Under the pieces are notes generated by a model. It saw nothing but the letters and a program-made list of their open reading frames with translations, was not told where the DNA came from and did not search any database. The position numbers and the translations under genes were made by a program. This document shows positions 3,705-55,090 of a stretch of DNA of 64,000 nt, one piece after another (the stretch's first letter is position 1; each line of letters opens with the position of its first letter). Location: positions 10,545 to 74,544 of the forward strand of contig DAOOIT010000016.1 in assembly GCA_035384565.1 (NCBI GenBank), in the 5' to 3' direction. The DNA is from Planctomycetota bacterium (GTDB taxonomy: Bacteria; Planctomycetota; PUPC01; DSUN01).

Positions 3705-5174
3705 TTGGCTATCAAGGTCGCCTTCATCGGCGCAGGCAGCATCGGCTTCACGCGGGGCCTGTTCCGCGACATCCTGAGCGTCCCAGAGCTTCAGGACACG
3801 CAGTTCGCCTTCCACGACATCAACCAGCGCAATCTCGACATGGTCGTGGCCCTGTGCGAGAAGGAGTTGAAGGCGGCCAGGCTGCCCGCCACGATCACGG
3901 CCACGCTCGACCGCCGCCGCGCGGTGGCCGATGCCGACTACGTGCTCAACGTCGTCCGCGTGGGCGGCCTCGACGCCTTCAAGCTCGATATTGACATCCC
4001 GCTCAAGTACGGCGTGGACCAGTGCGTGGGCGACACCCTGGCCCCCGGCGGCATCATGTACGGCCAGCGCAACATCCCGTGCATTCTGGACTTCTGCCGC
4101 GACATGCGCGAGGTGGCCAAGCCCGACGTTCTGTTCCTCAACTACGCCAACCCCAACGCAATGAACACCTGGGCCGCCATCGAGTATGGCAAGGTGAACA
4201 CCGTGGGCCTCTGCCACGGCGTCATCGGCGGCCACCACCAGATCGCCCAGGTGCTCGGGGCCAAGAGCGCCAAGGAAGTGGACATCATCTGCGCCGGCAT
4301 CAACCACCAGACCTGGTACATTCAGATCATCTACCAGGGGCGCAAGATCACGAGCGAGGAACTGCTTAGGGCGTTCGAGAAACACCCCGTCTACTCGAAG
4401 ACCGAGAAGGTGCGCATTGACGTCCTCCGCCGCTTCGGGTACTACTCCACCGAATCCAACGGCCACCTCTCCGAATACGTGCCGTGGTACCGCAAGCGCC
4501 CCGCCGAGATCAAGCGCTGGATTGACCTGTCGAGCTGGATCAACGGCGAGACGGGCGGCTACCTGCGCGTGTGCACCGAGGGGCGCAACTGGTTCAAGAC
4601 CGAGTTCCCCAACTGGCTCAAGGCCGACCCCAAGCCCATCTCGCCCGAGACCCGCGGCCACGAGCACGGCTCCTACATCATCGAAGGGCTGGAGACAGGC
4701 CGCCTCTACCGCGGCCACTTCAACGTCCGCAACAACGGCACCATCTCGAACCTGCCCGACGACTGCATCGTCGAGGTACCCGGCTACGTGGACCGCAACG
4801 GCATCAACATCCCGCGCGTGGGCGACCTGCCGCTCGCGTGCGCCGCCACGCTCATGGCCAGCATCAACGTCCAGCGCATGGCCGTCAAGGCCGCCGTCGA
4901 GGGGAACGTGACGCTGCTCAAACAGGCCATGCTCCACGACCCGCTGACCGCGGCGTGCCTGAACCCGCCCGAGATCTGGCAGATGACCGATGAGATGCTC
5001 GTCGCACAGGCCCAATGGCTGCCGCAGTACAAAGGCGAGATCGCGAAGGCCAGGAAGCGCCTCGCCCGCGAGAAGCCCCTCGGCACCCGAAAGTGGAAAG
5101 GCGCCGCCCGCCTCCACACCAAGTCCGTCGCGGAGATGAAGGCCGAGCGACGCAAGAGAGCACGGAGCAAGTAG
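3705..5174 (+). CDS. GH4-family NAD(+)/Mn-dependent glycosidase (alpha-glucosidase/alpha-galactosidase type)
   Basis: N-terminus MAIKVAFIGAGSIGFTR is a Rossmann NAD site, and ...NTVGLCHGV... is the GH4 catalytic Cys-His region. TTG start at 3705 sits 8 nt after the AAGGAGA Shine-Dalgarno at 3691. Confidence 0.85.
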   Translation: MAIKVAFIGAGSIGFTRGLFRDILSVPELQDTQFAFHDINQRNLDMVVALCEKELKAARLPATITATLDRRRAVADADYVLNVVRVGGLDAFKLDIDIPLKYGVDQCVGDTLAPGGIMYGQRNIPCILDFCRDMREVAKPDVLFLNYANPNAMNTWAAIEYGKVNTVGLCHGVIGGHHQIAQVLGAKSAKEVDIICAGINHQTWYIQIIYQGRKITSEELLRAFEKHPVYSKTEKVRIDVLRRFGYYSTESNGHLSEYVPWYRKRPAEIKRWIDLSSWINGETGGYLRVCTEGRNWFKTEFPNWLKADPKPISPETRGHEHGSYIIEGLETGRLYRGHFNVRNNGTISNLPDDCIVEVPGYVDRNGINIPRVGDLPLACAATLMASINVQRMAVKAAVEGNVTLLKQAMLHDPLTAACLNPPEIWQMTDEMLVAQAQWLPQYKGEIAKARKRLAREKPLGTRKWKGAARLHTKSVAEMKAERRKRARSK

Positions 5175-5323
5175 CGAGCGAGCATGCCGCGTGCGCTCCG
5201 ACTGCTCCCTCAGCAGCTTGCCTGGCACCGGACCCGAATCACCAGGCCTCGTGGCCTTCAACGCTGGACCCTGTGCGGGCTGCCAGGCGCCGGGACGCCC
5301 CGGTCGCCCGATGGAGGCGCATC

Positions 5324-6913
5324 GTGAGCCATCCGGGTCGGTATCTCGCCACACTTGCGTTTGTCGGATTCGCCACTGTGTCAGTTCCAGGTGCCGCCGG
5401 GTCGCTAGGCCTTGCGCAGAACCCGATTCTCTGGACAGATCTCCCTGACCTCGCGATCATGCGCGTCGGCGCCAACTACTACATGAGCAGCACCACGATG
5501 CACATGAGTCCCGGCCTGCCGATCATGAAATCAAGTGACCTGGTGAACTGGGAACTGGTTGGCTATGCCTACGACACGCTCGCAGACAACGACGCCCTGA
5601 CCCTCACGAACGGCAGAAACGCCTACGGCGCCGGGTCCTGGGCCAGCAGTCTCCGCTACCACGGCGGGGTCTTCTATGCAACCACCTTCTCGAGTACGAC
5701 CGGCAGGACTCATGTCTACACGACGAAGGACATCGAGAAGGGCCCGTGGAAGGAGACGTCGTTCCCCCCCTCGCTGCACGATCACTCGCTGTTCTTCGAT
5801 GACGACGGCCGCGTATACATGGTGCACGGCAGTGGTGACATTCGTCTCACCGAGCTCTGTGCCGATGCTTCGGGGGTCAAGCCCGGCGGCCTCAGCCAGG
5901 TGATCATCAGGAACGCCAGTCGCGTGGCCGGCGAAAGGGTTGGCCTGCCCGCCGAGGGCTCCCAACTCCACAAGATCGGCGGCAAGTACTACCTGATGAA
6001 CATCACTTGGCCTCGCAACGACGTCCGCACGCAGATCATCCACCGGGCCGACCGGATCACGGGTCCGTACGAGGGCAGGGTGATTCTCAGAGACCGCGGC
6101 ATCGCGCAGGGGGGACTTGTTGATACAGCGGACGGCCGGTGGTATGCGCTGTTGTTCGAGGACCACGGCGCCGTCGGCCGCATCCCCCATCTTGTTCCGG
6201 TGAGGTGGGAGGACGGCTGGCCTGTCTTAGGCGTGGATGGCAAAGTGCCAGCGACCCTCGACATCCCTGCCGGCAAGGGGGGCCTCGCCAACATCGTGGC
6301 CTCCGACGAATTCGACCGCCGCCCCGGCGACCGCGCGCTCCCGCTGGCCTGGCAATGGAACCACAACCCCGACAATCGGCACTGGTCGCTCACCCATCGC
6401 CCAGGCTGGCTGCGGCTGACCACAGGCAGAGTCGACCCCGACATCACCAGCGCCAGGAACACCCTCACGCAGAGGACCTTCGGTCCGCAGTGTTCGGGCA
6501 CCGTGGCGCTGGATGTGAGCCGTATGAGGGACGGCGACCTCGCTGGCCTCAGCGTGTTCCAGCGGAAGTATGGATTCGTCGCCGTCAAGACGGTTGGCGC
6601 CGCCAGGTCCGTTGTCATGGTGAGCGCCGAAACGGGTGTTCCCCTGGAGGCGGAATCCGTTCCCTTGAGGCAGGAAGTCGTCTTCCTCAGAGCGGACTGC
6701 GATTACAGGAACCGCGCCGACAGAGCCTCCTTCTACTACAGCCTCGACGGCAGACGCTGGACTGCCATTGGGGGCCCGCTGAAGATGTCCTACACACTCC
6801 CACACTTCATGGGCTACCGCTTCGCGTTGTTCAATCTCGCAACCAAGGTGGCAGGCGGTTCCGTGGACTTCGACTACTTTCGCGTGAGCGATCGGATCAC
6901 GGACGGGAACTGA
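5324..6913 (+). CDS. GH43-family glycoside hydrolase (beta-xylosidase/alpha-L-arabinofuranosidase type) with C-terminal beta-sandwich (GH43_C2-like) domain
   Basis: NPILWTDLPDLAIMRVGANYYM is the canonical start of the GH43 five-bladed propeller. The C-terminal half resembles the beta-xylosidase C-terminal domain. GTG at 5324 is preceded by GGAGG (5313-5317). The ORF is open back to 5015, so the exact start is uncertain. Confidence 0.8.
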   Translation: MSHPGRYLATLAFVGFATVSVPGAAGSLGLAQNPILWTDLPDLAIMRVGANYYMSSTTMHMSPGLPIMKSSDLVNWELVGYAYDTLADNDALTLTNGRNAYGAGSWASSLRYHGGVFYATTFSSTTGRTHVYTTKDIEKGPWKETSFPPSLHDHSLFFDDDGRVYMVHGSGDIRLTELCADASGVKPGGLSQVIIRNASRVAGERVGLPAEGSQLHKIGGKYYLMNITWPRNDVRTQIIHRADRITGPYEGRVILRDRGIAQGGLVDTADGRWYALLFEDHGAVGRIPHLVPVRWEDGWPVLGVDGKVPATLDIPAGKGGLANIVASDEFDRRPGDRALPLAWQWNHNPDNRHWSLTHRPGWLRLTTGRVDPDITSARNTLTQRTFGPQCSGTVALDVSRMRDGDLAGLSVFQRKYGFVAVKTVGAARSVVMVSAETGVPLEAESVPLRQEVVFLRADCDYRNRADRASFYYSLDGRRWTAIGGPLKMSYTLPHFMGYRFALFNLATKVAGGSVDFDYFRVSDRITDGN

Positions 6914-6988
6914 GGGATTCAGATTCACTCCCCCGTCCCTCACCGCGGTGGAAGGAACATGCGAGGGATGCGCCTGCTCGCCGAGAGG

Positions 6989-7100
6989 TGAGCAAGTATG
7001 GCGCTTGGGCGATCCGGGCGGGTTTACGGCCTTTCCGCCCATACTTGCTCAATTCCCTCCCCCTCCAGGTTGAGCAAGTATGGCGCCCGGGCGATCCGGG
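6989..7100. repeat. Family-A hairpin repeat cluster: three alternating-orientation copies of TGAGCAAGTATGGCGCYYGGGCGATCCGGG / CCATACTTGCTCA
   Basis: Direct copies at 6989-7018 and 7071-7100 and an inverted copy at 7038-7052, forming nested stem-loops. The same core recurs at 45861-45983 and, degenerate, at 12414-12447. Confidence 0.7.
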
Positions 7101-7146
7101 ACCTTCGGTGGCCGTCCCTGCCCATCTGCGCCACTCCCGCCCTCAC

Positions 7147-7245
7147 CACTACTCCGGCCGCGAACCCGTCTGCATCCTTCCGTGTAGCGACAAGCGTCTC
7201 GCTTGCCGAAAACCATCGCAAGCGGGACGCTTGCGGCTACGCTTG
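7147..7245. repeat. Family-B double-hairpin repeat (ACTACTCCGGCCGC...GCGACAAGCGTCTCGCTTGCC...CGCAAGCGGGACGCTTGCGG)
   Basis: Two short palindromes, CAAGCG-N4-CGCTTG and CCGCAAGC-GGGA-CGCTTGCGG. Related copies are at 47459-47600 and 60037-60110. Confidence 0.65.
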
Positions 7246-7481: not shown

Positions 7482-9401
7482 TCAGCGCGCGGCCACGAGC
7501 CTCTTGACGGCAGCGACGACGGACGCGGGGTCAATGCCCTGCTCGGCATAGAGGTCATCGGGCGTGCCCGAGCTGGCGTAGCGGCGCACGCCGAGCATCT
7601 CGAGCTTGCATGCGATGCCGCTGAGGGCCAGGGTCTCGGCCACCGAGGCGCCGAGGCCAGTCCAGACGTTGTGGTCCTCGCAGGTCACGAGGACGCCCGT
7701 CCTCGCGGCGGCCTTGATGGCCTCCACATCGGGGTCCTTGGGGCAGCTCATGGCCAGGAGGCCCACGCTCAGGCCCGCGGCGTTGAGCTCGGCCACGGCC
7801 TTCTGGCAATAGCCCACCATCGTGCCCATCGCGATCACCACGGCGTCGGTGCCCTCCGCGATGACATCGGCCTTTCCTGGTTGGAAGGTGTAGTCGCCGG
7901 CGTAGAAGGGCCGGCCCTTCGCGTCGGTGACGATGGGGAGCTTGGAGCGGCCCATGGCGACGGCGAAGTTGCCCGGCTGCTGCGAGATGTAGCGCACCAC
8001 GCGGTCGGTCTGGTTGCCGTCGGCGGGCACGATGATCTGGAAGCCGAACAGGTTGCGCATGGCGCCCACGTAGTCGAGGCACTGGTGGGTCTTGCCGTCC
8101 TCGCCCACGTCGAGGCCGCAGTGGGTGCACACGAGCTTGAGGTTGGTCTCGTTGATGTCGTTGAGCCGGTGCTGATTATAGGTTTCGTCGAAGCCGAAGA
8201 CCCCGAAGTCGGAGAAGTAGGTGAGCACGCCGCTGACCGACAGGGCGCCGGCGATGGTGGCGGCGTTGTGCTCCTGCACGCCGACCTGGAGGAAGTTGTT
8301 GGGCAGGGCCTTCTGGAAGTCGCCCGTGCGCACGGAGGGCAGCAGATCGCAGTCCACGCAGGCCATCGGCACCTTCTGGCCGTTGAGCTTGGCGAGGTCG
8401 CCGAGGGCGTTGCCCCAGGCCGAGCGGTTGTCAATGGGCGCCGTGTAAGTGCGGGGCGTGCCGGGGTCTATGGGGGCGGGGGCGTGGGCGAGGTGAATGG
8501 TCGAGCGCATGCCCGGGCCGGCCTTGCGCATCGCGGCGTAGCGCTCCAGGTCGTTCTCGACGCCCAGCACCTTCAGGGCGTCCTCGAACATGTCCTTGGG
8601 CAGCGCGGCGCCGTGGTACTTCTCCTTGTGCTCGATGGCGGGCACGCCCTTGCCCATCACGGTCGTGCACAGGATGGCCACGGGGTTCGCCGTGTCGAGC
8701 ACCGCCTCGCGCGTCGCCTGGTAGATGGCCTGGTAGTCGTGGCCGTCCACCTCGATCACCCGCCAGCCGTCGGCGAGGATCGTCGCCTTGATGTTCACGG
8801 GCATGATGTCCGAGGTCTTTCCGCTGATCTGGAGGCCGTTGAGGTCGAGCAGGACGGTGAGGTTGGACAGGTTGTACTTTCGGGCGAAGCGGCGGGCCTC
8901 GGCCACCTGGCCCTTGGCGTGCTCGCCGTCGCTCATCATGGCGAACACGTGGTAGTTGCGCCCCGTGAGGCGCGCGGCCATGGCCATGCCGGCCGCGGCC
9001 GACAGGCCCTGGCCCAGGTTGCCGCTCGACCATTCGCACCCGGGGATCGAGCGCTCGACGTGTCCCTCGAAGATGCTGCCGCTCTGGCGGAAGTGCGCCA
9101 CGGCCTCGTCAATCGGGAAGAAGCCCAGGCGCCCCAGCGTCGCATACACGCCGGGCGACGTGTGGCCGTGGCTCACGACGATCCGGTCGCGGTCGGGGTC
9201 CAGCGGGTTCCTCGGGTCAACGTTGGCCAGCGACCACACGACCAGATAGAAGTCAATGGATGACATGGAGCCGCCCGGGTGGCCGCAGGCGGCCAGCTCC
9301 GTCATCTTCAGGATATCGCCGCGGCACAGGCGGCCGAGTTCCTTGAGGCGTGCGAGTTGTTCGGGGGTCAAAGCAGGCGCCGCGAATCTGTTTCCGGCCA
9401 T
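7482..9401 (-). CDS. tkt: transketolase
   Basis: 639 aa with the HPGGSMSSIDFY thiamine-diphosphate motif and full-length collinearity with bacterial Tkt (N-terminal TPP domain, Pyr domain, C-terminal domain). Confidence 0.92.
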   Translation of the reverse strand: MAGNRFAAPALTPEQLARLKELGRLCRGDILKMTELAACGHPGGSMSSIDFYLVVWSLANVDPRNPLDPDRDRIVVSHGHTSPGVYATLGRLGFFPIDEAVAHFRQSGSIFEGHVERSIPGCEWSSGNLGQGLSAAAGMAMAARLTGRNYHVFAMMSDGEHAKGQVAEARRFARKYNLSNLTVLLDLNGLQISGKTSDIMPVNIKATILADGWRVIEVDGHDYQAIYQATREAVLDTANPVAILCTTVMGKGVPAIEHKEKYHGAALPKDMFEDALKVLGVENDLERYAAMRKAGPGMRSTIHLAHAPAPIDPGTPRTYTAPIDNRSAWGNALGDLAKLNGQKVPMACVDCDLLPSVRTGDFQKALPNNFLQVGVQEHNAATIAGALSVSGVLTYFSDFGVFGFDETYNQHRLNDINETNLKLVCTHCGLDVGEDGKTHQCLDYVGAMRNLFGFQIIVPADGNQTDRVVRYISQQPGNFAVAMGRSKLPIVTDAKGRPFYAGDYTFQPGKADVIAEGTDAVVIAMGTMVGYCQKAVAELNAAGLSVGLLAMSCPKDPDVEAIKAAARTGVLVTCEDHNVWTGLGASVAETLALSGIACKLEMLGVRRYASSGTPDDLYAEQGIDPASVVAAVKRLVAAR

Positions 9402-9875
9402 GGACTCCTCCGTGGATGGTGCAGAGGCGTTCGCAACTCATCCCGACGAAGTCATCATTATAGGCATTTGGCCTGATGCTTCAACTCTCGGCCTCTGTGC
9501 GGACTCACGGCCAGGCTTGCTGCCCGCAGGCAACCTGAGTCAGCGGGATTTGCCGTTCTTGACGGTATGGCACCGCGCAGACACGGACGACGCCTGGGAG
9601 CCTGTCCAAGAATCCGCGTGAGGCTGCGACGCCGCCGACTCTGGCCGCACGCAAGGAGCGAGGAGGAGGCGATGCAACGGAGCGCATCGCGGACGATGAG
9701 CGACACAGCGGGCGGCCTGAAGTCGCGGCGTCCCTTCGGGTTGCGGCGTCAGCGGGCCGGCTGCCACGTTGCGGCTCCTCAGCGATGCATTCCAGGGCAT
9801 CGCCTGCGTCGCCGCGCCTCGCATCCAGCCCGCTGACGCCGGCAACGCAGCCCACGGGGATACTTGGACAGGCTC

Positions 9876-11972
9876 CTAGCCACCCTGCTTGCGGCTGCGC
9901 CGCCGGCGGGCGAGGAGAGCGAGGCCGCCGAGGCCGAGGAGGGTGAGGGTGGCCGGCTCCGGGATCGCGCCCTGCTGCTGGACAGGGGAAAGGAGGAAGG
10001 CGAGCGGATCGCTGGGCGAGGGCTCCCCACTGCCGGCGATGTACTCGCCAGAAGGACTAATCGTCCACTGCAAGAAGTCCCACCCGTTGGCGGCCAGGCC
10101 GCCGTCCACCAGCGAGCCGAGGTCGTGCAGGCCGCCGGCGACGGTGAAGTAGAAGGGCCGCAAGCCGAGGTCGGTGTCCAGTGCGTCGAAGAGTTGGTAC
10201 TGGCCCAGCACCAGCCCGTTGTCGCCGAGCCACGTGACCTCGCTGTAGGCGTACCCGTCCGAGCGGGTGGAGAGGTCGAAGGGGTAGGTGGTGTCGGTTC
10301 CCGGGTCGTACATCCAGGCGCTGTAGCCGAGCGGGGTCTCGCCTCCGTTGTAGCGGGTGGCCTGGCCTGCGACCTGGCCGAGCGCGTTCAGAAGCAGGTT
10401 CCCCTCGTCTTCTCCGCCTATGCCCGCCCCGCTGCTGTAGCGGAATCCGTCGGCGCGCGTGCGCATGGGGTCGGCGAGGCCGACATTGAGGGTGGCCGTG
10501 CCGTTGTAGAGCCAGGCGGACTGCCCCAGGTAGCCGGTGCCCGCGGCGTCGAAGCGGATCGCCGTGCCGGCGACCCAGCCGGCGTCGTTCAGGGCATGGG
10601 GGTAGCTGGAGCGGTACTCGTTGACGGCGGTGTGCTCGGGGTCGGTGAGGCCCACGTTGAGGGTGGTCGTACCGTTGTAGAGCCAGGCGGTCTCGCCCAG
10701 GTCGTTGCCGGCGGCGTCGTACCGGTACGCCACGCCCACGACTCGGCCCGCGGCGTTCAGGCCAGCGACCCAGCTCTCGCGGTACCCATCGGCCGCGCGG
10801 GTGTGCTCAGGGTCGGTGGGGCCCACGTTCAGGGTCGTCGTGCCGTTGTAGAGCCAGGTGCTCCAGCCGTTGTAGTTGCCGGCGCCGTCGTAGCGTTCCG
10901 CCTGGCCCGCGACCTGGCCCGCAGCGTTCAGGAAGTACACGTCAGCATAGCGGCGGTTATCGGTGACGCGTGTGTGCTCAAGGTCGGTGGGGCCGACATT
11001 GAAGGTGGTCGTGCCGTTGTAGAGCCAGATGCTCGAGCCATTGTAGTTGCCCGCGCCGTCATAGCGGGCTGACCAACCCGCGGCCTGGCCCGCGGCGTTC
11101 ATGTTGTTCGCCCAACTCGAGCGGTAGCCATCGGTCACGCGCGTGTGCTCGGGGTCGGTGAGGCCGATATTGAGGGTCGTGGTGCCGTTGTAGAGCCAGG
11201 TGCTCGCGCCCAGGTCGTTGCCGGCGCCATCGTAGCGGAACGCACTGCCCACGACCTGGCCCGCGTCATTGAGGTAGTTCGGCCAACTGATGCGGGTGCC
11301 ATCGGTCGCGCGCGTGTGCTCTGGGTCAGTGAGGCCGATGTTGAGGGTCGTCGTGCCGTTGTAGAGCCAGGCGCTCGCGCCGTTGTGGTTGCCTGCGCTG
11401 TCGTAGCGGTCCGCCCAGCCCGCGACCTGGCCCGCGGCGTTCAGGCCGATGGCCCAACTGTGGCGGTACTCATTGGTCACGCGGGTGTGCTCGGGGTCGG
11501 TGAGGCCCACGTTTTGCGTCGTCGTGCCGTTGTAAAGCCAGGCGCTCACGCCGACGTCGTTGCCCGCGGCGTCGTAACGGTTTGCCCCGCCCACCACCTG
11601 GCCCGCAGCGTTGAGGCCTGTGACCCAACTGTAGCGGTAGGCGTTCGTGCCCGTGTGCTCGGCGTCGGTGAGGCCGACGTTGAGGAGGGCAGAGCCGTCG
11701 TAGAACCAGGCTGTCTGGCCCAAAGGGCCTTCGGGTGGGACGTAGCGCGTCTGGCTGCCCGCGACCTGGCCCGAAGCATTAACGTACCGGGGGAAGCTCT
11801 CGCGGGTGCCTCCAGGGCCCGTGTGCTCGGCGTCTTTGAAACCGAGGGAGGTGATGCTGAAGATGGGGGCGGCTGGCGCGCGGCCCGCCCCCCCGAGCAA
11901 GATTGCGCCCGCCACGCCGATGGCGAAGCAGAGGGAGAGTCGCCCGAATCGCCCGTTGACTGTGCCGCCCAT
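9876..11972 (-). CDS. extracellular tandem-repeat protein (HAF-family-like repeats) with C-terminal PEP-CTERM sorting signal
   Basis: About 11 tandem copies of a roughly 40-aa unit (..SAWLYNGTTTLNVGLTDPEHTR..GYR.SW..GLNAAGQVAG.A.RYD.AGN..G.). The C-terminus IPEPATLTLLGLGGLALLARRRRSRK is PEP, then a TM helix, then a basic tail. The signal peptide begins at MGGTVNGRFGRLSLCFAIGVAGAILL (start 11972); the ORF is open to 12059. Confidence 0.75.
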   Translation of the reverse strand: MGGTVNGRFGRLSLCFAIGVAGAILLGGAGRAPAAPIFSITSLGFKDAEHTGPGGTRESFPRYVNASGQVAGSQTRYVPPEGPLGQTAWFYDGSALLNVGLTDAEHTGTNAYRYSWVTGLNAAGQVVGGANRYDAAGNDVGVSAWLYNGTTTQNVGLTDPEHTRVTNEYRHSWAIGLNAAGQVAGWADRYDSAGNHNGASAWLYNGTTTLNIGLTDPEHTRATDGTRISWPNYLNDAGQVVGSAFRYDGAGNDLGASTWLYNGTTTLNIGLTDPEHTRVTDGYRSSWANNMNAAGQAAGWSARYDGAGNYNGSSIWLYNGTTTFNVGPTDLEHTRVTDNRRYADVYFLNAAGQVAGQAERYDGAGNYNGWSTWLYNGTTTLNVGPTDPEHTRAADGYRESWVAGLNAAGRVVGVAYRYDAAGNDLGETAWLYNGTTTLNVGLTDPEHTAVNEYRSSYPHALNDAGWVAGTAIRFDAAGTGYLGQSAWLYNGTATLNVGLADPMRTRADGFRYSSGAGIGGEDEGNLLLNALGQVAGQATRYNGGETPLGYSAWMYDPGTDTTYPFDLSTRSDGYAYSEVTWLGDNGLVLGQYQLFDALDTDLGLRPFYFTVAGGLHDLGSLVDGGLAANGWDFLQWTISPSGEYIAGSGEPSPSDPLAFLLSPVQQQGAIPEPATLTLLGLGGLALLARRRRSRKQGG

Positions 11973-12333
11973 GGTTCGGTCCCCTGGTGCCCCCATGCTG
12001 TTGCAGAATCGCGGGTTTGCCCATCGCCCACCGAAGCCGGCTCCCCGGCGATGGCGCACGACCAGGATTCAAGCGCTTTCTCCCCGCGCTGTCAAGTGCA
12101 CTTCAATTCTCGCGAGGCGGTTGCGATGTCACCTTGGGCCTTCGCCAGCAGCAGGACCTGAGGGCCTCACGAAGGTATTGGAATCTTCGGGACGGAACTT
12201 GAAAGAAGGGGGTCTTCGGGGTTTGCTGATCCTGCCTCGACTGGCCGGTGCAGGGCGTGGGCATGCCCTCTCCCTGCGGACCTGGCGGTTCCTGGGGAGG
12301 GCCCTGCCGAGGGGCTGGCGGGCGCAGCCTGCG

Positions 12334-12375
12334 CATGCTGTATCAACCCTGTGAGGGGGGAAGTGATACAGCATG
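12334..12375. repeat. perfect 12-bp inverted repeat (CATGCTGTATCA ... TGATACAGCATG) with an 18-nt loop
   Basis: Seen directly in the sequence. The loop (ACCCTGTGAGGGGGGAAG) resembles the loop of the family-A hairpin at 45877-45894 (TTCCTGTGAGGGTGGAAT). Confidence 0.5.
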
Positions 12376-12413
12376 GATAGAAGGACGAGGATTGGCGATT
12401 CTCGCGGTTCCGG

Positions 12414-12447
12414 CCATACCTGCTCATCTGGGGGATGAGCAAGCATG
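12414..12447. repeat. degenerate family-A hairpin (CCATACCTGCTCA-TCTGGGGGA-TGAGCAAGCATG)
   Basis: Inverted pair with two mismatches to the TGAGCAAGTATGG core. Confidence 0.5.
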
Positions 12448-12711
12448 TGAGCGGGAATGCCCGGAGGGCGTAAGGCGTTGGGGTATAGAGGGTTATGGGA
12501 CGGTCCTCACTGGCGCCACATCTCCCGTCGCGCGCTCCCCAACGGGGCCGCGTCAGGATGGTCAAACCGTGGCGAGTCCGACATCTGAAGCCTCAGGCAA
12601 GCGGTCCGCCCGCAGGAACGTCCGACATCGCAACCGCCTGAGTTTTCGCCCAGCAAGAGCTGAGGCGAAGCGCCGCAGAGGCGTGGGATGCAGCCCGGGG
12701 GCCTGGAATAC

Positions 12712-14334
12712 TCACCTGGGCAGGCGGTAGATATGGACGCCCAGCGGGGCAAAGGTGTCGGTGAAGGAGCCGGCGCTGGCCTTGAGCGTGCGGTTCTCGT
12801 CAACGACTGTCACCTCGCCCCCTGCGGGCAGGCCCTCGACTTTGATGGTGGCTTTGGCCTCCCTCAGGCGCTCGTCGTAGTTGACGGTGAAGAGGTAGAG
12901 GCCATCGGGGCCTTCTTTGGCCAGGAGGTCGAGCTTCACGTCGCCCTCGGCCGCAATGGAGGCGGCCTGCTTCGGCGCGGCGCCGAGGATGGCGGGCGCG
13001 AGCCGCGTGATCTGTTCGTTGATCTCGCGGATCGCCTTGCGGTTCTCGTCGGGCACACCGAACTGGCTGTAAGAGGGCTTCCAGATGTGGGTGAAGTAGC
13101 CAATGGCTGTGGCCCCGCGGGTGATGGACATCCACACCTCGGCGCGGATGTGGGTGGGCGTGACCTCCTTCTGGTTCTCGAGGGCGCCTGTCCATTGTCC
13201 TCCCCTGCCCGTCTCGATCCAGGCATACACGGGCTTGTCGCCGGCCATCTTCACCAGCAGGTCGGTCGCCTCCTGAACGAGGTGGATCCACTCGGGCTTG
13301 TTCCAGCCGTAGATGGGGTAGATGTCGTAGCCCACGACGTCGGCGGCCTTCACGTACTCGGGATACGCCCGCCGCAGGTCATCGGGAATGCGTTTGAAGA
13401 AGGGATGGAAGTTGCCCGTGAGGGTCATGAAGACCGGCCGCGTGGGGTCGGCGGCCTTCATCGCGTTGTACTTTGCGAGCGTCTCGGCGGGGGTGGCGCG
13501 CGGCACGGTGCGCGGCGGCGACAGGAGGACGTTTCTCCCCGCCTTGTCGAAGCCCTCGATCTCGCCGAGCGAGCCCCACTCCTGATCGCCGGGGTAGGTG
13601 GACACCACCTTGAGGGTAAGTTCCTTGAAGGTGGCAGGCTTGGCAAGCGCGAACTTCTGCTCGCCCTTCTTGTTCTCGACCGTAGCCTTGAGGATTTCGG
13701 CGCCATCGCCCTCGAAGACGACCTCCTTCATCACGGCCAGGCCCTTCGAGATGGTGGGCCAGACCGCCAGGGCCTCGACGGTGATCGGCGCCTTGAGCTT
13801 GATCGCGATGACGGCACCCTGAAGCGGGTCGAGCACCGACCAGCTCGTCCTGTCGCCGTCGAGGACCTTCCACAGCGGCGTACGGTTGTTGATCTTCAGG
13901 TGCTTCGCGGGCACGACCTCGGCGTCGCTCGCCTGGTGGGTGAGGTCGGGCTCGTCGTCGTGGATGTAGCCGAGCAGCGCGGGGTGGCCTTTGAGCTTCG
14001 GCTCAAACGGCATCACGCCGTAGAGGCCGGCCGCGGCCACAAGCGGCAGGTAGCCCGTCACGTCCTGCGTGCCGGACGACTTGGGCCAGTAGCCGGCCAC
14101 CGTGTTCATCGCGCATTCGGCGACCAGCGGGAAGTTCCGCGCGTCCTGGAGCCACGCCATCAGTGGAAAGAATGGCTTGCCGTTGACCAGGAACGCTCGG
14201 CCCGGGCCGATGGCGACCTTCTCGATGGGCGGCAGCTTGGCCTCGCCCGCCGATGCGAGAGCAGGGACAAGCACGAGTGCGACCGCAAGGCATCTGGCCA
14301 CGGCGGTTCCTCCTGAGAAGCGCGCAGTTGACAA
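12712..14334 (-). CDS. secreted hypothetical protein, putative glycoside-hydrolase-like (TIM-barrel plus beta-sandwich)
   Basis: Signal peptide MSTARFSGGTAVARCLAVALVLVPALASA. A 540-aa ORF with strong codon bias. I assign no family with confidence. Confidence 0.65.
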   Translation of the reverse strand: MSTARFSGGTAVARCLAVALVLVPALASAGEAKLPPIEKVAIGPGRAFLVNGKPFFPLMAWLQDARNFPLVAECAMNTVAGYWPKSSGTQDVTGYLPLVAAAGLYGVMPFEPKLKGHPALLGYIHDDEPDLTHQASDAEVVPAKHLKINNRTPLWKVLDGDRTSWSVLDPLQGAVIAIKLKAPITVEALAVWPTISKGLAVMKEVVFEGDGAEILKATVENKKGEQKFALAKPATFKELTLKVVSTYPGDQEWGSLGEIEGFDKAGRNVLLSPPRTVPRATPAETLAKYNAMKAADPTRPVFMTLTGNFHPFFKRIPDDLRRAYPEYVKAADVVGYDIYPIYGWNKPEWIHLVQEATDLLVKMAGDKPVYAWIETGRGGQWTGALENQKEVTPTHIRAEVWMSITRGATAIGYFTHIWKPSYSQFGVPDENRKAIREINEQITRLAPAILGAAPKQAASIAAEGDVKLDLLAKEGPDGLYLFTVNYDERLREAKATIKVEGLPAGGEVTVVDENRTLKASAGSFTDTFAPLGVHIYRLPR

Positions 14335-39521: not shown

Positions 39522-41270
39522 TCACTTGAGGAAATCGGGCAGGTAGCTATCGCCGGAGTCCTTGGGCTGGAGCTTCTTGCGCTGCTCCTCGCGCTGGCGG
39601 CGCTCGGCCTCGCGGAGTGCGCGGTAGGAGCCGCGCGTGAGGCGATCCTCGTTGCCCGGCCCGGCGATGACGACGATGGAGCTCTCGGCCATCAGGTGCT
39701 TCTGCTTGGCATTGATGTGGTAGCAGCGGCTCTGGCACAGGCCGCAGCCGTTGCACTTGTCGGCGAGCACGACGGGCGCGGAGAAGCCGCTGCCTTCGAC
39801 CGGCTGGCCGTCGTCGCCGATCTCGACGTGGACGCGGACGAACTCGATGGCGTCGTAGCCGGCGGCCTTGCACTCGTCGAAGCACATCTGGCAGGCCTCG
39901 GTGCCGAGGTGCGGCAGGCAGGTGGCCTCGTTGACGATGGCCAGGCCGATGCGGGCGGCGCGCTTCTCGTCGAGCGGCAGGGCGCGAATCGCGCCCGTGG
40001 GGCACACCTGGCCGCAGTTGTTGCACTTCGGCTCGCAGCCGACCCAGTCGGGCACCACCTGCGGCGTCCACAGGCTCTCAAGGCCGTGCTCGAAGCCCAT
40101 CGGCTGAAGGACGTTGAACGGACAGGCCTTGAGGCACTGGCCGCAGCGGACGCACAGGCGCAGGAAGTCGGGCTCGGGCACGCTGCCCGGCGGGCGCAGC
40201 GGCGGGTGGTCGGGCGGCGCGCCGCGGAGCTGGCGAATCCCGACCGCTGCGGCCAGACCCGCCCCCAAGCCCATCGCGAAGCCGCGGCGCGAAACAGGGC
40301 CGTCGCTGGCGCCGGATGTGCGACGCGCGAGGCGCCGCCAGCCGAACTCGATGGCGTTGACGGGACACACCTTGCCACAGGTCTGGCAGAAAGTGCAGTC
40401 GAGGGCGCGGGTGGTGAAATCGGGCCTGATGGCGTCGAAGGAACATGCCCGCGCACACTTGCCGCATTGGATGCACGCCGGCGTCACCTTGCGCTCGGTC
40501 AGCCGGAGGACGTTCGCCACGGAGAAGACTGCGCCACTGGGACACAGGTACCGGCACCAGAAGCGGGCGGCGAGCAGGCCCAGCGCGATCGTGAGCACGA
40601 ACAGCCCGATGGAGAGGTAGTGCCCCGCGTGCATCGGCGGGATGAGGTACCAGCCCTTCGCCAGACCGAGTTGCACGGGGGCGGCCAGATACATCATCCC
40701 GCGCGTGAACACGGGGATGGCGGCGACGAAGCCCGACAGCAGCACGCCGCACGCCGCGGCGGCGAGGAGGCCGCCGAGCACATAGTACCGCAGATGCACC
40801 CACCAGCCGCGGCGCCGCGCTTCCCCCACCTTCTCGTCCCTGCGCTCTGCGTGGGAGCGTGTCTGCCGACGCTCTGCGTCGCGGGCACGGAGGGCCGCGG
40901 AGCGGCCGAAGAGGCGTCCCCAGGCGGAGCGCAGGGATGAGAGCGCGACATGGAACAGGTCGAGGAGGGTGCCGAAGGGGCAAACATAAGCGCAGAAGCC
41001 GCGCGGGATGACCAGGCACACGGCCAGCAGTGCGGCCGCCCAGGCGAGCGACCAGACCCAGGCTCGCGCCGCAATGGCCGTCGAGACGCTCACGAGCGGG
41101 TCGAGTGCGAGGAATGCCTCGGCCTCGACCATCTCGCGCGCGGCCCGCGCCTCCGCGTGGTGGCGCACGTCATAGGGCCAGCAGACGGAGAAGAAGAGGG
41201 CGAGGAAGAGGAGGAAGCAAGCAGATTGAATCGGCCGGCGGAGTCTGCCAATGGCGCGGAGCAGGAACAA
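39522..41270 (-). CDS. membrane-bound polyferredoxin, a NapH/MauN-like N-terminal half fused to a NapG/MauM-like C-terminal half
   Basis: Two CX3CP motifs in TM helices (CAYVCPFG, CRYLCPSG). Six CxxCxxCxxxC(P) 4Fe-4S motifs follow (CIQCGKCARAC, CTFCQTCGKVCP, CVRCGQCLKACP, CNNCGQVCP, CQMCFDEC, CNGCGLCQSRC). There is an internal twin-arginine-like motif, SRRGFAMGLGAGLAAAVG. Confidence 0.8.
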   Translation of the reverse strand: MFLLRAIGRLRRPIQSACFLLFLALFFSVCWPYDVRHHAEARAAREMVEAEAFLALDPLVSVSTAIAARAWVWSLAWAAALLAVCLVIPRGFCAYVCPFGTLLDLFHVALSSLRSAWGRLFGRSAALRARDAERRQTRSHAERRDEKVGEARRRGWWVHLRYYVLGGLLAAAACGVLLSGFVAAIPVFTRGMMYLAAPVQLGLAKGWYLIPPMHAGHYLSIGLFVLTIALGLLAARFWCRYLCPSGAVFSVANVLRLTERKVTPACIQCGKCARACSFDAIRPDFTTRALDCTFCQTCGKVCPVNAIEFGWRRLARRTSGASDGPVSRRGFAMGLGAGLAAAVGIRQLRGAPPDHPPLRPPGSVPEPDFLRLCVRCGQCLKACPFNVLQPMGFEHGLESLWTPQVVPDWVGCEPKCNNCGQVCPTGAIRALPLDEKRAARIGLAIVNEATCLPHLGTEACQMCFDECKAAGYDAIEFVRVHVEIGDDGQPVEGSGFSAPVVLADKCNGCGLCQSRCYHINAKQKHLMAESSIVVIAGPGNEDRLTRGSYRALREAERRQREEQRKKLQPKDSGDSYLPDFLK

Positions 41271-42956: not shown

Positions 42957-45221
42957 TCACTCGCCCTGTATCTTGCGCAGCACCTCGACGAGACGGACGA
43001 CCTTGCCCTCCTGGTGGGCGATGCCGGCCGCCACGCGGTCGCCTGCGCGCACGGTGCCCAGGGCCTCCGCGAGAGCGGGGGGCAGCCCGTCGCGGTTCAC
43101 CGACACGGTGAGCAGCTTGCCGGCGAGGCCCTCGGGATTCCTGGCGGTGTTGGACTGCCAGACTCTCGTGACCTTGTCGGCGCGGAGGACCAGGACGCCT
43201 TCGCCCTTGCCGACCACCACGCCCTCGATCATCCCGCGGAAGCCTGCCACGTCGTCGGCCGTGGCCGGGCCGGCGGCTTCGGTGCGGGTTTCGGGCTTCG
43301 GCTCGTCGCGGCGCTCGCCGTCGCGGGCGACCTTCTTCTCGCGCCAGAACGCCTCGTCGTCGCCGTCGCGTCGCACGGGCTTCTCGCGGCGTTCGCCCTC
43401 GCCGTCGGGCGCGACCTTCTTCTCACGTCTCTCGCCGTCGCCCTCGGGGGCGGTCTTCTTCTCGCGCCAGCCGCCGTCGCCCTCGCCTTCGGTGCGAACC
43501 TTTTTCTCGCGCCAGCCGCCTTCGCCCTCGCCCGAGCGCTTGTCGCGCTTGGGCTGATCGGGCGCGTCGAGCACGCGGTACCTCTTCACCACGAGGCCCG
43601 GCTCGATGCCGTCCTCGCCCGGCGTCGCCTCGCCCACGAGGCGCACGCGGCGGCCGTTCGCCTCGTCCACCAGCTTCGCGCCGTCGGCCTCCTTGAGGAT
43701 GCGGTAGACGGTGACCTTCTCGCGCACGCCCTCGTCGGTCTCCTTGCGTTCGACGACTTTGAGGATGCCGGCGCAGTCGCGGTCGGGCGTGGCCTTCACC
43801 CAGCCCTCGAGTTCGCGCAGCCGACCGCTCTCGGCCTCGACCTTCTTGACGCGGGCGTGGCCTTCGCCTTCGCTCTCGCGGACGGGTTCGACCTTCTTGA
43901 CGCGCGCATGGCCTTCGCCCTCGCCCTCGCCCTCCGGCGCGATCCTCTTCTCACGATGGTGGCCTTCGCCCTCGCCTTCGCGGACGGGTTCGACCTTCTT
44001 GACGCGCGCATGGCCTTCGCCTTCGCCCTCGCCCTCGCCCTCGGAGCGAGCCGGCTTGTCGCGCTCGCCCTCGCCGCCTTCGGTTTCGGCCTTGCGAAGG
44101 AGCTCCATTACGGAGAGGCGGAAGCCCTGGATGTCGAATGCCTCGACGATGATCTGGTCGCCCTGTCGGAGCGACTTGAGGGTTTCGAGGTGCTTCTCGA
44201 GCATGCGGTTCTCGGGCACGACGACCTCGATCGTCTTGCCAACGGCCTGTTCGGGGTGTCGGGCCGTGCTCTGGGGCCAGGTGGCGGCCACTTTGTCAAT
44301 CTTCAGCAGGAACTCGCGTGTGACCTTGCTGGTGATGGTGCCGACGAGGATGCCCTTGAAGCCTTTGAGTTCGGGGGGCAGGGTCGGGCGCTCGGCGTCG
44401 CCGCCGGCGAACACCTGGCTCATGCCGGGGCCCAGCACCGCCACGTCGCCGAAGTGGCAGGCCACCATCCCCGTCACCACCATCACCGTCACCACGGCCG
44501 ACTTCTTCAGCGTCCCCATGTCGCGTTCTCCTTTCTGCGATTCGGGGTATTCGACGCTGGTGAGAAACTCGGTGCCTTTGACCTCGATGGAGCCGATGGG
44601 CGTGAGGAGCGTGAAGCGCCCCCTGCCCGGGTCAATGCGGGAGATGGCGCGGCCGCGCTGGAGCTCGATGGCCTCGTGGCGCGGCTGGCCGCGCACGACG
44701 GCCTGGGCGTTGGGGTCGAGGGCCACGCGGCAGTAGCCGCCGAGGGCGAGTTCGGCGCCGCCGGCTTCGGCGACGATGCGCTGGCCCCGCGAGAGCGCGG
44801 CGGAGCCGGTGCGGAGGGTGTCACCGTCGCCGAGGCGGAATGCGCCCGTGGCGATGAGCGAGTGTGCGCGCCCGCGGCTCGCCTGCCAGACGCCGTGGGC
44901 GGCATAGAGCGCGCCGAGGAGGACGGCGGCGGCCGCGGCCCAGCGCAGCCCTCGGCCTCGGCGGGCCGGGCGGCGCTGGATGGCGTGGGCTTTGGCGCGC
45001 AGGGTGGCCTTGGCGAGGAGACGCTCGCGGCTGTGGGCCAGGGCGTCGGCCTGGCGGCCTGCCAGGCGCTGGCGGAGCTGGCCCTCGAAGCACACGGCGG
45101 CCGCGGCCTCCTGGCGCCGGGCCGGGTCGGCGAGGGCGGCGGCCAGGGCGCGGGCTTCGGCCTCCGAGAGCGGCTCGCCCTCCAGCGCGCGGTCGAGGAG
45201 ATCGTGCCAGTGGCTGCTCAT
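42957..45221 (-). CDS. anti-sigma factor (N-terminal anti-sigma domain, one TM helix, FecR-like domain) with a long C-terminal extension of three repeated ~70-aa domains separated by EG-rich tandem repeats
   Basis: Start MSSHWHDLL at 45221 overlaps the sigma-factor stop (ATGA). TM LRWAAAAAVLLGALYAA. A FecR-like block (GSIEVKGTEF). Repeats (EGEGEGEGHARVKKVEPVRE)x4 and (GEGDGGWREKKxAPE)x4. Upstream in-frame codons (to 45527) are R/P-rich and were rejected. Confidence 0.7.
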   Translation of the reverse strand: MSSHWHDLLDRALEGEPLSEAEARALAAALADPARRQEAAAAVCFEGQLRQRLAGRQADALAHSRERLLAKATLRAKAHAIQRRPARRGRGLRWAAAAAVLLGALYAAHGVWQASRGRAHSLIATGAFRLGDGDTLRTGSAALSRGQRIVAEAGGAELALGGYCRVALDPNAQAVVRGQPRHEAIELQRGRAISRIDPGRGRFTLLTPIGSIEVKGTEFLTSVEYPESQKGERDMGTLKKSAVVTVMVVTGMVACHFGDVAVLGPGMSQVFAGGDAERPTLPPELKGFKGILVGTITSKVTREFLLKIDKVAATWPQSTARHPEQAVGKTIEVVVPENRMLEKHLETLKSLRQGDQIIVEAFDIQGFRLSVMELLRKAETEGGEGERDKPARSEGEGEGEGEGHARVKKVEPVREGEGEGHHREKRIAPEGEGEGEGHARVKKVEPVRESEGEGHARVKKVEAESGRLRELEGWVKATPDRDCAGILKVVERKETDEGVREKVTVYRILKEADGAKLVDEANGRRVRLVGEATPGEDGIEPGLVVKRYRVLDAPDQPKRDKRSGEGEGGWREKKVRTEGEGDGGWREKKTAPEGDGERREKKVAPDGEGERREKPVRRDGDDEAFWREKKVARDGERRDEPKPETRTEAAGPATADDVAGFRGMIEGVVVGKGEGVLVLRADKVTRVWQSNTARNPEGLAGKLLTVSVNRDGLPPALAEALGTVRAGDRVAAGIAHQEGKVVRLVEVLRKIQGE

Positions 45222-45712
45222 GGCGCCAGTTCCCCGGCCAGTTGGCCCTCGACGCATCGCTTGAGGGCTTGGCGGATGCGGAAGAGCTGGACCCGTACGG
45301 TGGCGGCGTTCCGGGAGAGCTGCTCGGCGATCTGGGTGACCCGCAGGCCGTGCTCGTAGCGGCGGGCCACGAGGTCGCGGTCCTCGGGCGATAGGGTGCC
45401 GAGGCAGTGGTCGAGGGCGGCGTGAAGCTCGCGGCTGGCGGCGCGCGAGAGTGCGTCGTCGGCCTCCTCGGCCAGGAGAGCGAGGCGGTCGGCGGCGTCC
45501 TGCGTCAGCTTCTGATGCTCGCGCCACCAGGTCTTCACCAGGTTACGCACGGTGCCGCGGAGCCAGGCGCCGGGGTCGCCGGTGAACTCGCGCCCCTCTT
45601 CCAGGCGGTCGAAGGCGATGAGGAATGCCTCGTGCACGATGTCCTCGGCCTCGGGGGCGCCGCGGGTGAGGAAGCGCGCGTAGCGCCACGCGCCTTCGTA
45701 GTGGCGGTCCAC
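45218..45712 (-). CDS. ECF-type RNA polymerase sigma factor (sigma-70 family group 4)
   Basis: ..RFEALVDRHYEGAWRYARFL.. is region 2.1/2.2, and ..LSPEDRDLVARRYEHGLRVTQIAEQLSRNAATVRVQLFRIRQAL.. is the region-4 HTH. GTG at 45710-45712. The in-frame upstream codons (..RLRHRFEALV..) suggest the true start lies a few codons further 5' at a non-ATG codon. Confidence 0.75.
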   Translation of the reverse strand: MDRHYEGAWRYARFLTRGAPEAEDIVHEAFLIAFDRLEEGREFTGDPGAWLRGTVRNLVKTWWREHQKLTQDAADRLALLAEEADDALSRAASRELHAALDHCLGTLSPEDRDLVARRYEHGLRVTQIAEQLSRNAATVRVQLFRIRQALKRCVEGQLAGELAP

Positions 45713-45860
45713 CAGGGCTTCGAAGCGGTGGCGCAGGCGGCTGATGGCGAGTCTCCTGGTATGTGCGGCCAGCTTCCTTCATAGGGTACTGTGGCGCGGG
45801 AATCAAATGTTTCACGGTTCTCCGCCTGCGGCGCCGGCATGTTGCTGCTTGGCAACATGC

Positions 45861-45983
45861 CACCCATACTTGCTCATTCCTGTGAGGGTGGAATTGAGCA
45901 AGTATGGGTGGAACGCCCCCGGAGGCCGCCGGATCGCCAAAGCGCCATACTTGCTCACCTGGGGGGATGAGCAAGTATGGGGG
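45861..45983. repeat. Family-A hairpin repeat cluster (four alternating copies of CCATACTTGCTCA / TGAGCAAGTATGG) in the divergent promoter region between the ECF sigma gene and the 46169 gene
   Basis: Copies at 45863-45876(-), 45895-45908(+), 45945-45958(-) and 45968-45980(+). The 45929-45958 copy carries the full 30-bp unit including GGCGATCCGG. Confidence 0.7.
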
Positions 45984-46168
45984 ACGGGGTGTCTGATTTG
46001 TCGGACTCGTTGGACGTGTCGGACTGGTCGGACGCATCGGACTTGTCGGGTTCGCCGGCTTCGGGGGCTAATTGGCCTTGCACGAGATGGGCGGGCTGAC
46101 ATGAATAGAGTCGCTGCCCCGCACGAGGGCGGAGAGACCGAGGGTGAAGGGGAGAAGGAGGAGTGGCG

Positions 46169-47458: not shown

Positions 47459-47600
47459 CTACTCCGGCCGCCAACCAGTTTGCAGTGGCCGGGATCACGC
47501 TGCGTCGGCCAGGGCATCAAATGTTCCGCTTGCGGTGGTTTTCGACAAGCGAGACGCTTGTCGCAACGCGGAAGAATGCGAACTGATTCGCGGCCGTGGC
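47459..47600. repeat. Family-B double-hairpin repeat (ACTACTCCGGCCGCCAACC..CCGCTTGCGG..CGACAAGCGAGACGCTTGTCG)
   Basis: It shares the ACTACTCCGGCCGC leader and the CAAGCG/CGCTTG palindromes with 7147-7245 and 60037-60110. Confidence 0.6.
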
Positions 47601-47685
47601 AGTATCTGTCCCCATCGGTGCCATCGGTCCTATAGAACAGATAGGACGGATAGGGCCGATAGGACGCCAGAGAGGAGAGAAAGCA

Positions 47686-54403: not shown

Positions 54404-55090
54404 ATGAAGAGCCGCTGGGCCATCTTCGCGAGCGCACTGGTCATCGGCCTCTCGGGCGCCATGATGCCCGGGCCGCTGCTCACGGCGAGCATCGGCTACA
54501 CGATGCAGCGCGGGTTCCTCGCGGGCGGACCGCTGCTGGTCCTCGGCCACGCCATCCTGGAGCTTGCGCTCGTGGTGCTAGTCCTCGCGGGCATCGGGCC
54601 GCTGCTGTCGCGGCCAAGGGTGGGCGCCGCCATCGGCCTCGTCGGAGGCGCCGTGCTCATCTGGATGGGCTACGGGATGATTTCCTCAGCCATGGGCGGG
54701 ATGCGGCTCGCTGCCGAGCCGCGCGCGGGCACACTGATGACCAGTCCCGTGCTCGCGGGAGCGCTCATCTCGCTTGCGAACCCCTACTGGTCGCTGTGGT
54801 GGGCGACGATTGGGCTGAAGTACATTGCTCTTTCGCGCGAAAGAGCCAACACCGGTGTCGTCGCATTCTACTGCGGCCATCAACTCTCGGACGTGGCCTG
54901 GTACTTCTTCGTCGCAGGCGCCGTGGCCCTGGGCCGCAAGGCCATCCCCGATGTGGTCTATCGCTGGGCCATCGGTGCCTGTGGCATCGTGCTCCTGGCC
55001 TTCGCCGCATACTTCATGGTCGGAGCGGTCCGCACCTTCGTTCGCGCGCGTCTCGCCCTCCCGAAGGTTCCAACACCTTCGGGAGGGTAA
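54404..55090 (+). CDS. LysE/RhtB-family amino-acid exporter
   Basis: 228 aa with six TM helices. The N-terminal ..GLSGAMMPGPLL.. is the LysE signature region. Confidence 0.8.
   Translation: MKSRWAIFASALVIGLSGAMMPGPLLTASIGYTMQRGFLAGGPLLVLGHAILELALVVLVLAGIGPLLSRPRVGAAIGLVGGAVLIWMGYGMISSAMGGMRLAAEPRAGTLMTSPVLAGALISLANPYWSLWWATIGLKYIALSRERANTGVVAFYCGHQLSDVAWYFFVAGAVALGRKAIPDVVYRWAIGACGIVLLAFAAYFMVGAVRTFVRARLALPKVPTPSGG

Follow-up and report, generated by a model that had tools for sequence, protein, structure and literature searches.

A probable MITE-like transposon superfamily with a shared hairpin cassette in an uncultured lineage of Planctomycetota

The inverted 13-nt repeats that lie between the genes of this DNA are, with a probability that we put at about 0.7, the internal stems of a MITE-like superfamily of non-autonomous transposons, whose members share a conserved hairpin cassette within an uncultured lineage of Planctomycetota. 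Multiple copies lie scattered between genes, inverted ends and target duplications were seen in two subfamilies, copies present in one species are absent from another, and the stems of the hairpins are compensated. The original prediction, made from the window (the whole stretch of 64,000 nucleotides analysed here), spoke of a small mobile element of REP or MITE type. The MITE half of that description is upheld by the inverted ends, the target duplications and the absence of elements from a sister species. The size of the unit had to be revised, the mobile unit being a composite of about 200–400 nt in which the 13-mer is an internal stem. The REP/RAYT half is not supported: a conserved GTAG or CGTC tag is missing from the hairpins, the targets are duplicated, and the sequences searched yielded no Y1 transposase.

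How secure is the repeat itself? The core TGAGCAAGTATGG is present in seven exact and two degenerate copies distributed over three sites (table 1). When up to two mismatches are allowed the window contains nine copies; dinucleotide-preserving shuffles give an expectation of 0.55, and the highest count in 100 of them was five. The exact positions and the shuffles bear out the predicted occurrence at three intergenic loci in alternating orientation, and the copy numbers given for them (three at site 1, four at site 3 and a degenerate pair at site 2) are likewise correct. Inverted copies pair as stems, as had been proposed; these are of 13 bp, with loops of 9–10 or 17–20 nt. On the other hand, the supposed free-standing ‘30-bp unit’ is actually one arm together with the first 17 nt of a 37-nt linker, linker A, and a second hairpin at site 2 (12333–12376) had been overlooked. 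Each of the three sites is part of a larger element, extending over approximately 6955–7155, over 12210–12578 and over approximately 45836–46010. Proteins encoded in the window have identical counterparts among those annotated in MAGs of Planctomycetota. Thirteen contigs, assembled independently, contain the region of the transketolase gene, and the site 1 cluster does not differ among any of them, so the repeats are not an artefact of assembly.

Table 1. Positions of the repeats, of the elements that contain them and of the neighbouring genes (window coordinates).
Feature	Position	Strand	Remarks
Core TGAGCAAGTATGG, exact copies	6989, 7039, 7071, 45864, 45895, 45945, 45968	+, -, +, -, +, -, +	
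Core, degenerate copies	12414, 12436	-, +	1 and 2 mismatches
Site 1, Type I element	6955–7155	-	decayed, ends truncated; from alignment to 12 other Type I copies
Site 1, degenerate upstream unit	7084–7155	-	
Site 1, long-loop hairpin	arms 7071–7083 and 7039–7051, loop 7052–7070	-	
Site 1, linker A	7002–7038	-	37 nt; adjoining arm 6989–7001
Site 1, degenerate terminal GC-loop hairpin	6955–6988	-	
Site 1, neighbours	GH43 gene 5015–6913; transketolase gene 7482–9401	+; -	convergent 3' ends
Outer shell, family E	12116–12638		a different repeat family; perfect 15-nt inverted ends GGCGGTTGCGATGTC at 12116–12130 and 12624–12638
Site 2, Type II element	12210–12578	+	full length, 369 nt
Site 2, left inverted end	12210–12231		GGGTCTTCGGGGTTTGCTGATC; 3 mismatches to family pattern
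Site 2, right inverted end	~12557–12578		6 mismatches to family pattern
Site 2, hairpin 1	arms 12333–12345 and 12364–12376	+	variant ‘A2’ arms GCATGCTGTATCA and TGATACAGCATGG; 18-nt purine-rich loop
Site 2, linker B	12377–12413	+	37 nt, ATAGAAGGACGAGGATTGGCGATTCTCGCGGTTCCGG; own small internal hairpin
Site 2, hairpin 2	12414–12448	+	CCATACCTGCTCA, 9-nt loop, TGAGCAAGCATGT; the degenerate pair first noticed
Site 2, neighbours	gene of unknown function 12712–14334; PEP-CTERM gene 9876–12059	-; -	
Site 3, Type III element	45836–46010	+	four consecutive hairpins
Site 3, 5' hairpin	45836–45861	+	GGCATGTTGC/GCAACATGCC
Site 3, long-loop hairpin of family A	45864–45907	+	
Site 3, linker C	45908–45944	+	37 nt
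Site 3, short-loop hairpin of family A	45945–45980	+	
Site 3, tail hairpin		+	GTGTCTGATTTGTCGGAC
9-nt tandem repeat	46000–46049	+	GTCGGACNN, 5.6 copies, after the Type III tail
Site 3, neighbours	ECF sigma factor gene 45218–45712; GFO/IDH/MocA oxidoreductase gene 46163–47434	-; +	divergent

What, then, is the unit that is repeated? We denote the arm CCATACTTGCTCA by ‘<’ and the core as given above by ‘>’. The interval from ‘>’ to the next ‘<’ is always exactly 37 nt, bar one duplicated case of 65 nt whose ‘<’ is actually an element end. The interval from ‘<’ to ‘>’ is a loop of 17–19 purine-rich nucleotides, of 20 GC-rich nucleotides or of 9–10 nt, and orientation is strictly coupled. Read in its own orientation, a cassette runs from a long-loop hairpin through a 37-nt linker to a short-loop or GC-loop hairpin. 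From these fixed intervals and loop classes we conclude that the units are hairpins with 13-bp stems joined by fixed linkers. The consensus of the purine-rich loop is ACCGAGAGGGGGAGGAAAT, with G8–G12 and G14 near-invariant, and by sequence there are three kinds of linker, A (CGCTTTGGCGATCCGGGCGGCTCTACGGCCTTTCCGC), B (CCGGAGCCGCGAGAATCGCCAATCCTCGCCCATCTAC) and C. Type I elements have one to four copies of an 82-nt unit, a long-loop hairpin plus linker A, followed by a hairpin with the 20-nt loop; in Type II a long-loop hairpin, linker B and a hairpin with a 9-nt loop succeed one another; in Type III the linker is C and the second loop is of 10 nt.

The per-site divergence is about 8% in arms not forced by the search pattern, 10.6% in linkers and 21.5% in loops. 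The unforced arms are thus about as diverged as the linkers and are not exceptionally conserved; an earlier impression that the arms are far more conserved than the rest was in part an effect of ascertainment, and the difference vanished once the pattern-forced arms were excluded. We also considered the cassette as a small open reading frame, with its ATG in an arm and a GGAGG in a loop. The ‘peptides’ are not conserved, and the reading was rejected because the GC-rich linkers are open in every orientation; the apparent starts at -3 arise because the arm holds TGA...ATG in frame.

How widespread is the cassette? Metagenome contigs were scanned for two inverted arms, ATACTTGCTCA and TGAGCAAGTAT, separated by a gap of 8–38 nt. 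At least 119 stretches matched, so the motif is enriched beyond the window, which was the check set by the original prediction. Among the matches listed, 96 combine a G+C content of 65–73% with arm arrays, the sources are Planctomycetota populations in anaerobic-digester-type samples, and merging of the same site across assemblies leaves at least 79–86 distinct sites. With that many flanking contexts the repeat is not confined to a single duplicated segment. The elements are spread over at least two related populations, at about 90% identity. Since 764 kb of fetched sequence yielded only two elements in addition to the scan matches, we put the number per genome at between dozens and roughly a hundred copies. 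A paired-arm scan of 185,579 species-representative genomes, a set from which the source species is absent, returned seven single chance palindromes in unrelated, mostly low-GC taxa.

Among the matches listed, 98 of 99 clusters are intergenic. The settings include 19 divergent, 14 convergent and 30 co-directional gene pairs, with the cassette in both orientations, and we find no bias of orientation or towards promoters. The elements are about 205–420 nt in length and have no coding capacity, being crossed only by spurious high-GC reading frames.

If the hairpins are internal, where do the elements begin and end? This is clearest for Type II. When 23 copies were aligned with that of site 2, conservation extended over some 370 nt, far beyond the arms, and was bounded by 22-nt terminal inverted repeats, GGCTCWTCRGGGTYTGGCGATC, which start with GGCTCTTCG. 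In the youngest copy (L130:7255-7620) the ends are perfect, as is the 8-bp duplication of the target, TGAAGTTG. In five older copies the flanks match at 5–6 of 8 positions, compared with 2 of 8 by chance. The Type II elements carry the signature of the ISL3 family, namely ends that begin with GGCTCTT(C/T)G together with a direct repeat of 8 bp. ISArsp7, a member of that family, has the ends GGCTCTTCGCGG... (GGCTCTTCGCGGTTGG...) and an 8-bp direct repeat (PMC6305408), both of which we verified on the annotated plasmid record NZ_MH067972; its end is identical to that of Type II at 15 of 22 positions. The ISL3 copies of Microcystis and their MITE also have ends that start with GGCTCTTCG and 8-nt direct repeats (PMC11448079).

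Site 2 is a decayed example of the same kind. A Type II HMM, whose alignment included the site 2 copy itself, matches 12194–12601 at E = 1.5e-103. Every strain of the species has the element, which is nested inside the shell of family E. Its flanks agree at 2 of 8 positions, so that a target duplication is no longer recognisable, and none is recognisable at any of the three sites in the window. We had considered the Type II copy as one long palindrome; folded whole, it is no better than shuffled sequence (z = -0.8), and only the ends and the local hairpins pair. Motifs related to the shell (GAAGTTCACATCGCAACCGCC) flank elements in L030, L070, L122 and L130, and in the last of these the youngest Type II copy is itself inserted into such a motif. 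In one MAG (L008, ~6830–7000, the orthologue of 12400–12580) the right half of the element at site 2 has about 14 substitutions close together, with flanks identical over hundreds of bases; either another copy has converted this half or the assembly is chimeric.

The Type I copies share about 120–150 nt upstream and 60–110 nt downstream of the cassette. Their terminal inverted repeats, GAGCATGGCCCCCAGGCCTGGC, are distinct from those of Type II. The 9-bp flanks match at 8 of 9, 8 of 9 and 7 of 9 positions, the duplication length of about 9 bp being drawn from these few imperfect cases. At site 1 no terminal inverted repeats remain, both ends having been lost; beyond the arm cluster, other copies remain similar over no more than 138 nt upstream and 16 nt downstream. 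A REP-like inverted doublet headed by GTAG (GTAGCGACAAGCGTCTCGCTTGC and its partner, 7184–7240) adjoins site 1. A third copy of that motif lies near 47550 (47545–47567), in a 144-nt block (47459–47602) that is missing from the sister species, and the motif is also found in the flanks of L078 and L136.

Type III elements, site 3 included, are about 205 nt in length, and among them we found neither terminal inverted repeats nor target duplication. The 9-nt tandem repeat that follows the tail of site 3 lies directly upstream of the oxidoreductase gene. Similar 9-nt runs follow the Type III copies in L046, L086 and L141, and in the sister species the run after the Type III copy is 24 nt longer.

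Are the elements gained and lost between relatives? The sister species retains the gene order of the window at about 87% nucleotide identity. Its intergenic region at site 2 measures 203 nt, compared with 652 nt in the window: a block of about 535 nt, comprising the shell of family E and the Type II element, is missing. Site 1 is absent as well, and so is the GH43 gene. Two additional repeat families of the window are also missing. Such presence and absence indicates gains or losses of elements over the time in which species diverge. Site 3, by contrast, is found in the same place and the same orientation in both species. There the orthologous linkers are identical at 27 of 37 positions, each arm differs at 6–7 of 13 positions, and all 13 pairs of the long-loop hairpin are kept in both; from the sequences, the arm change looks like a replacement en bloc. 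All three copies in the window are old: the ends of site 1 are gone, those of site 2 have decayed, and site 3 predates the split of the two species.

Several other repeats lie in or near the same regions. An element of 286 nt with 27-nt inverted ends (CTRGGAGCCTGTCCAAGWATCC...) occupies 9594–9879, upstream of the transketolase gene; the intergenic region that holds it measures 474 nt in the window and 190 nt in the sister species, contigs of six independent assemblies end inside the element, and its inverted ends recur in L031, L061 and L065. At 40832–40942 there is an inverted pair of about 47 nt of the CGCAGAGCGTAGGGACGAG type, where the window is about 100 nt longer than the sister species; a motif of this type also lies upstream of the element in L019. 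A hairpin doublet, CCCTCCCGAAGGTTCCAACACCTTCGGGAGGG, at 55056–55157 and 12165–12195 belongs to yet another dispersed hairpin family of the genome, also present in the flanks of L034, L070 and L072. Compared with the window from 9402 onward, positions 1–6690 of L010 have alcohol dehydrogenase and sulfatase genes, rather than the PEP-CTERM gene, upstream of the transketolase gene, a strain-level rearrangement with its breakpoint at the repeat-filled intergenic region. The PEP-CTERM gene itself contains, at 10305–11845, eight to nine tandem coding repeats of 171 nt (57 aa) with 60–80% identity. In L137 (GCA_041320515.1), positions 12150–12530 hold three tandem units of about 144 nt with the hairpin TTCTCACATTCTTGAGAATGTGGGAA, downstream of the transketolase gene; relatives thus carry hairpin repeat families of their own.

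By what mechanism might the elements move? We suggest that a transposase supplied in trans would bind the inverted ends and insert the element, duplicating 8 bp of target in the case of Type II and about 9 bp in that of Type I. For Type II the enzyme would, by analogy, be a DDE transposase of the ISL3 family, because the ends start with GGCTCTTCG. The Type I arrays may grow and shrink by slippage or by unequal recombination between their 82-nt units. The ends of a parent insertion sequence should match GGCTCTTCGGGGTTTGGCGATC (Type II) or GAGCATGGCCCCC. A Pfam scan of the 29 reading frames of the window returned no transposase, Y1_Tnp included, and a tblastn search of about 1.2 Mb fetched from the lineage, with the ISL3 transposase of ISArsp7 as the query, gave no significant match.

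What role might be played by the cassette itself? The core and five stem variants, six in all, are each perfectly or almost perfectly self-complementary, which indicates that pairing is maintained. The variant CCATGCTGTATCA, with four stem positions of the core changed on both sides in the A2 arms, is found at eight independent loci, which include hairpin 1 of site 2 and the youngest Type II copy. Another, CCATACTGTATCA, comes from a relative with a complete genome, and GCATACTTGCAC comes from another relative, in a solitary hairpin with a 20-bp stem directly after the stop codon of the transketolase gene; CCATGCTCGCTCA is a further variant, and CCCATCTGTATCA is that of the sister-species copy of site 3. 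In an alignment of 34 stem sequences 97.3% of cells are paired and 6 of the 13 pairs show double changes, although these represent few independent events; none of 500 shuffles reached this degree of pairing, and no slid register came close. Selection on a hairpin, of DNA or of RNA, may keep the arms paired; alternatively, changes may be copied from one arm to the other without selection when the template is switched within a quasi-palindrome, which is a known mechanism of mutation. As each ‘>’ can pair with the ‘<’ of the next hairpin, template switching could spread a variant along an array.

The same cassette is common to backbones with unrelated ends, ISL3-like, of the GAGCATGG type or none at all, which is unusual for MITEs. 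This, together with the at least six paired variants and the replacement of arms en bloc beside an orthologous linker, is the argument for regarding the cassette as a module with a function of its own, which would be swapped or rewritten between elements and become uniform within each species. It would then be recognised by a dedicated, co-evolving protein, RAYT-like or some other hairpin-binding enzyme, or would act as a structured RNA. We consider it unlikely that the cassette has this independent standing.

Could the hairpins instead be the primary mobile units? On this account the family would be of the REP/BIME type, an extragenic palindrome spread by a RAYT (a Y1 transposase, IS200-like) acting on single-stranded hairpins, with the larger elements assembled secondarily. 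Planctomycetes have been reported to contain REP families and many Y1 transposases (PMC3733652). Alternating hairpins with fixed-length linkers of a few sequence classes are what BIMEs display, the relative with the solitary hairpin offers a family-A-like unit standing alone, a GTAG-headed REP-like family adjoins site 1, and covarying stems, with arms that differ at an orthologous site, would be expected if arms co-evolve with the protein that recognises them. However, a REP is defined as a palindrome of 20–40 nt with a conserved GTAG (or CGTC) tag at one end (PMC3733652). The hairpins of family A, at 35–46 nt, have no such tag: the sequences beside them vary (CGC, GTG, GTAG, ACAG), and the GTAG of linker B is itself variable (GTAG, GTGG, ACAG, GCAG) and lies on the wrong side. 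The composite elements, moreover, have terminal inverted repeats and target duplications of 8–9 bp, and Y1 transposition makes no target duplications. A tblastn search of the fetched loci with approximate IS608 TnpA and E. coli RAYT queries gave no significant match. We judge an origin of this kind improbable.

A functional RNA is a further alternative, in which the transcribed cassette stabilises or ends transcripts, or serves as a sponge for a protein or for ribosomes through its purine-rich GGAGG/AGGA loops, and in which copy number is selected. The four hairpins of site 3 give a fold of -101 kcal/mol (z = -7.0), that of site 1 reaches z = -2.8, the stems stay paired through compensatory changes, the loop consensus retains its near-invariant guanines, and site 3 has been kept since the species split. 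Against this, the whole Type II copy of site 2 folds no better than chance, the sister species does without sites 1 and 2, and the cassette shows no orientation bias relative to its flanking genes. A scan of site 3 for sigma-70 promoters and intrinsic terminators found no promoter consensus and no U-tract terminator. Nor is there a relevant match in Rfam: release 15 gave none at the gathering threshold over the window and, at E <= 1, nothing at site 2 and only two chance-level matches at site 3. The inverted ends and target duplications indicate that the copies arose by insertion, and an RNA module as the explanation of the family seems to us quite doubtful.

That the repeats form an array of operators bound by a transcription factor, such as a regulator of the divergent promoter of the ECF sigma and oxidoreductase genes, is very improbable indeed: inverted 13-mers do resemble dimer-binding sites, and the element between these divergent genes has been kept in the sister species, but the cassette also lies between convergent gene ends (in 14 cases, site 1 among them) and beside unrelated genes at at least about 80 sites, occupying every intergenic setting in both orientations, site 3 shows no promoter consensus, and a change of 6–7 of 13 arm positions with pairing kept is the opposite of what a protein-recognised operator would show, so the repeated operator once proposed is set aside.

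We therefore return to the MITE-like superfamily and ask how it compares with known systems. Its Type II members resemble the ISL3-derived MITEs of Microcystis aeruginosa (PMC11448079), which are likewise small, non-coding, multi-copy and intergenic, with the same start to their ends and an 8-bp duplication. They differ in that no parent ISL3 copy was found in the window or in the ~1.2 Mb fetched, in their planctomycete host, and in the two-hairpin cassette of their interior, which is also carried by elements with other ends. The BIMEs of E. coli, built from Y, Z1 and Z2 REPs with L, S, l, r and s linkers, have in common with family A the alternation of hairpins, the fixed-length linkers of few types, the variable repeat number and the extragenic location; unlike them, the family-A hairpins have no GTAG tag and their arrays lie inside elements with inverted ends and duplications, and no RAYT was found in the fetched loci with the approximate queries. 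The pneumococcal BOX element (boxA–boxB(n)–boxC) is similarly modular, with a middle module of variable repeat number (here the 82-nt unit, one to four times), strong predicted structure, dispersal between genes and no identified transposase. Its sequence is unrelated and its host belongs to another phylum, whereas here ends and duplications are defined for two subfamilies. The Correia/NEMIS, ERIC and RUP elements are also non-coding repeats bounded by inverted repeats that form stable hairpins when transcribed, but their ends, their duplications (TA for Correia) and their interiors are different, and there is no sequence relationship.

To our knowledge, the biology of mobile elements in Planctomycetota has been little described. 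The elements account for long, structured intergenic regions in this lineage, and they explain breaks in metagenome contigs and differences of hundreds of bases in intergenic length between sister species. They are worth masking before promoters, small RNAs or operators are predicted in the organism. If the main reading is correct, they add to the Planctomycetota a well-resolved superfamily of MITEs with an ISL3-type member and an unusual, shared and covarying hairpin cassette. Should the cassette be independently functional or exchanged, it would offer a useful system for the spread of a hairpin module between transposon backbones.
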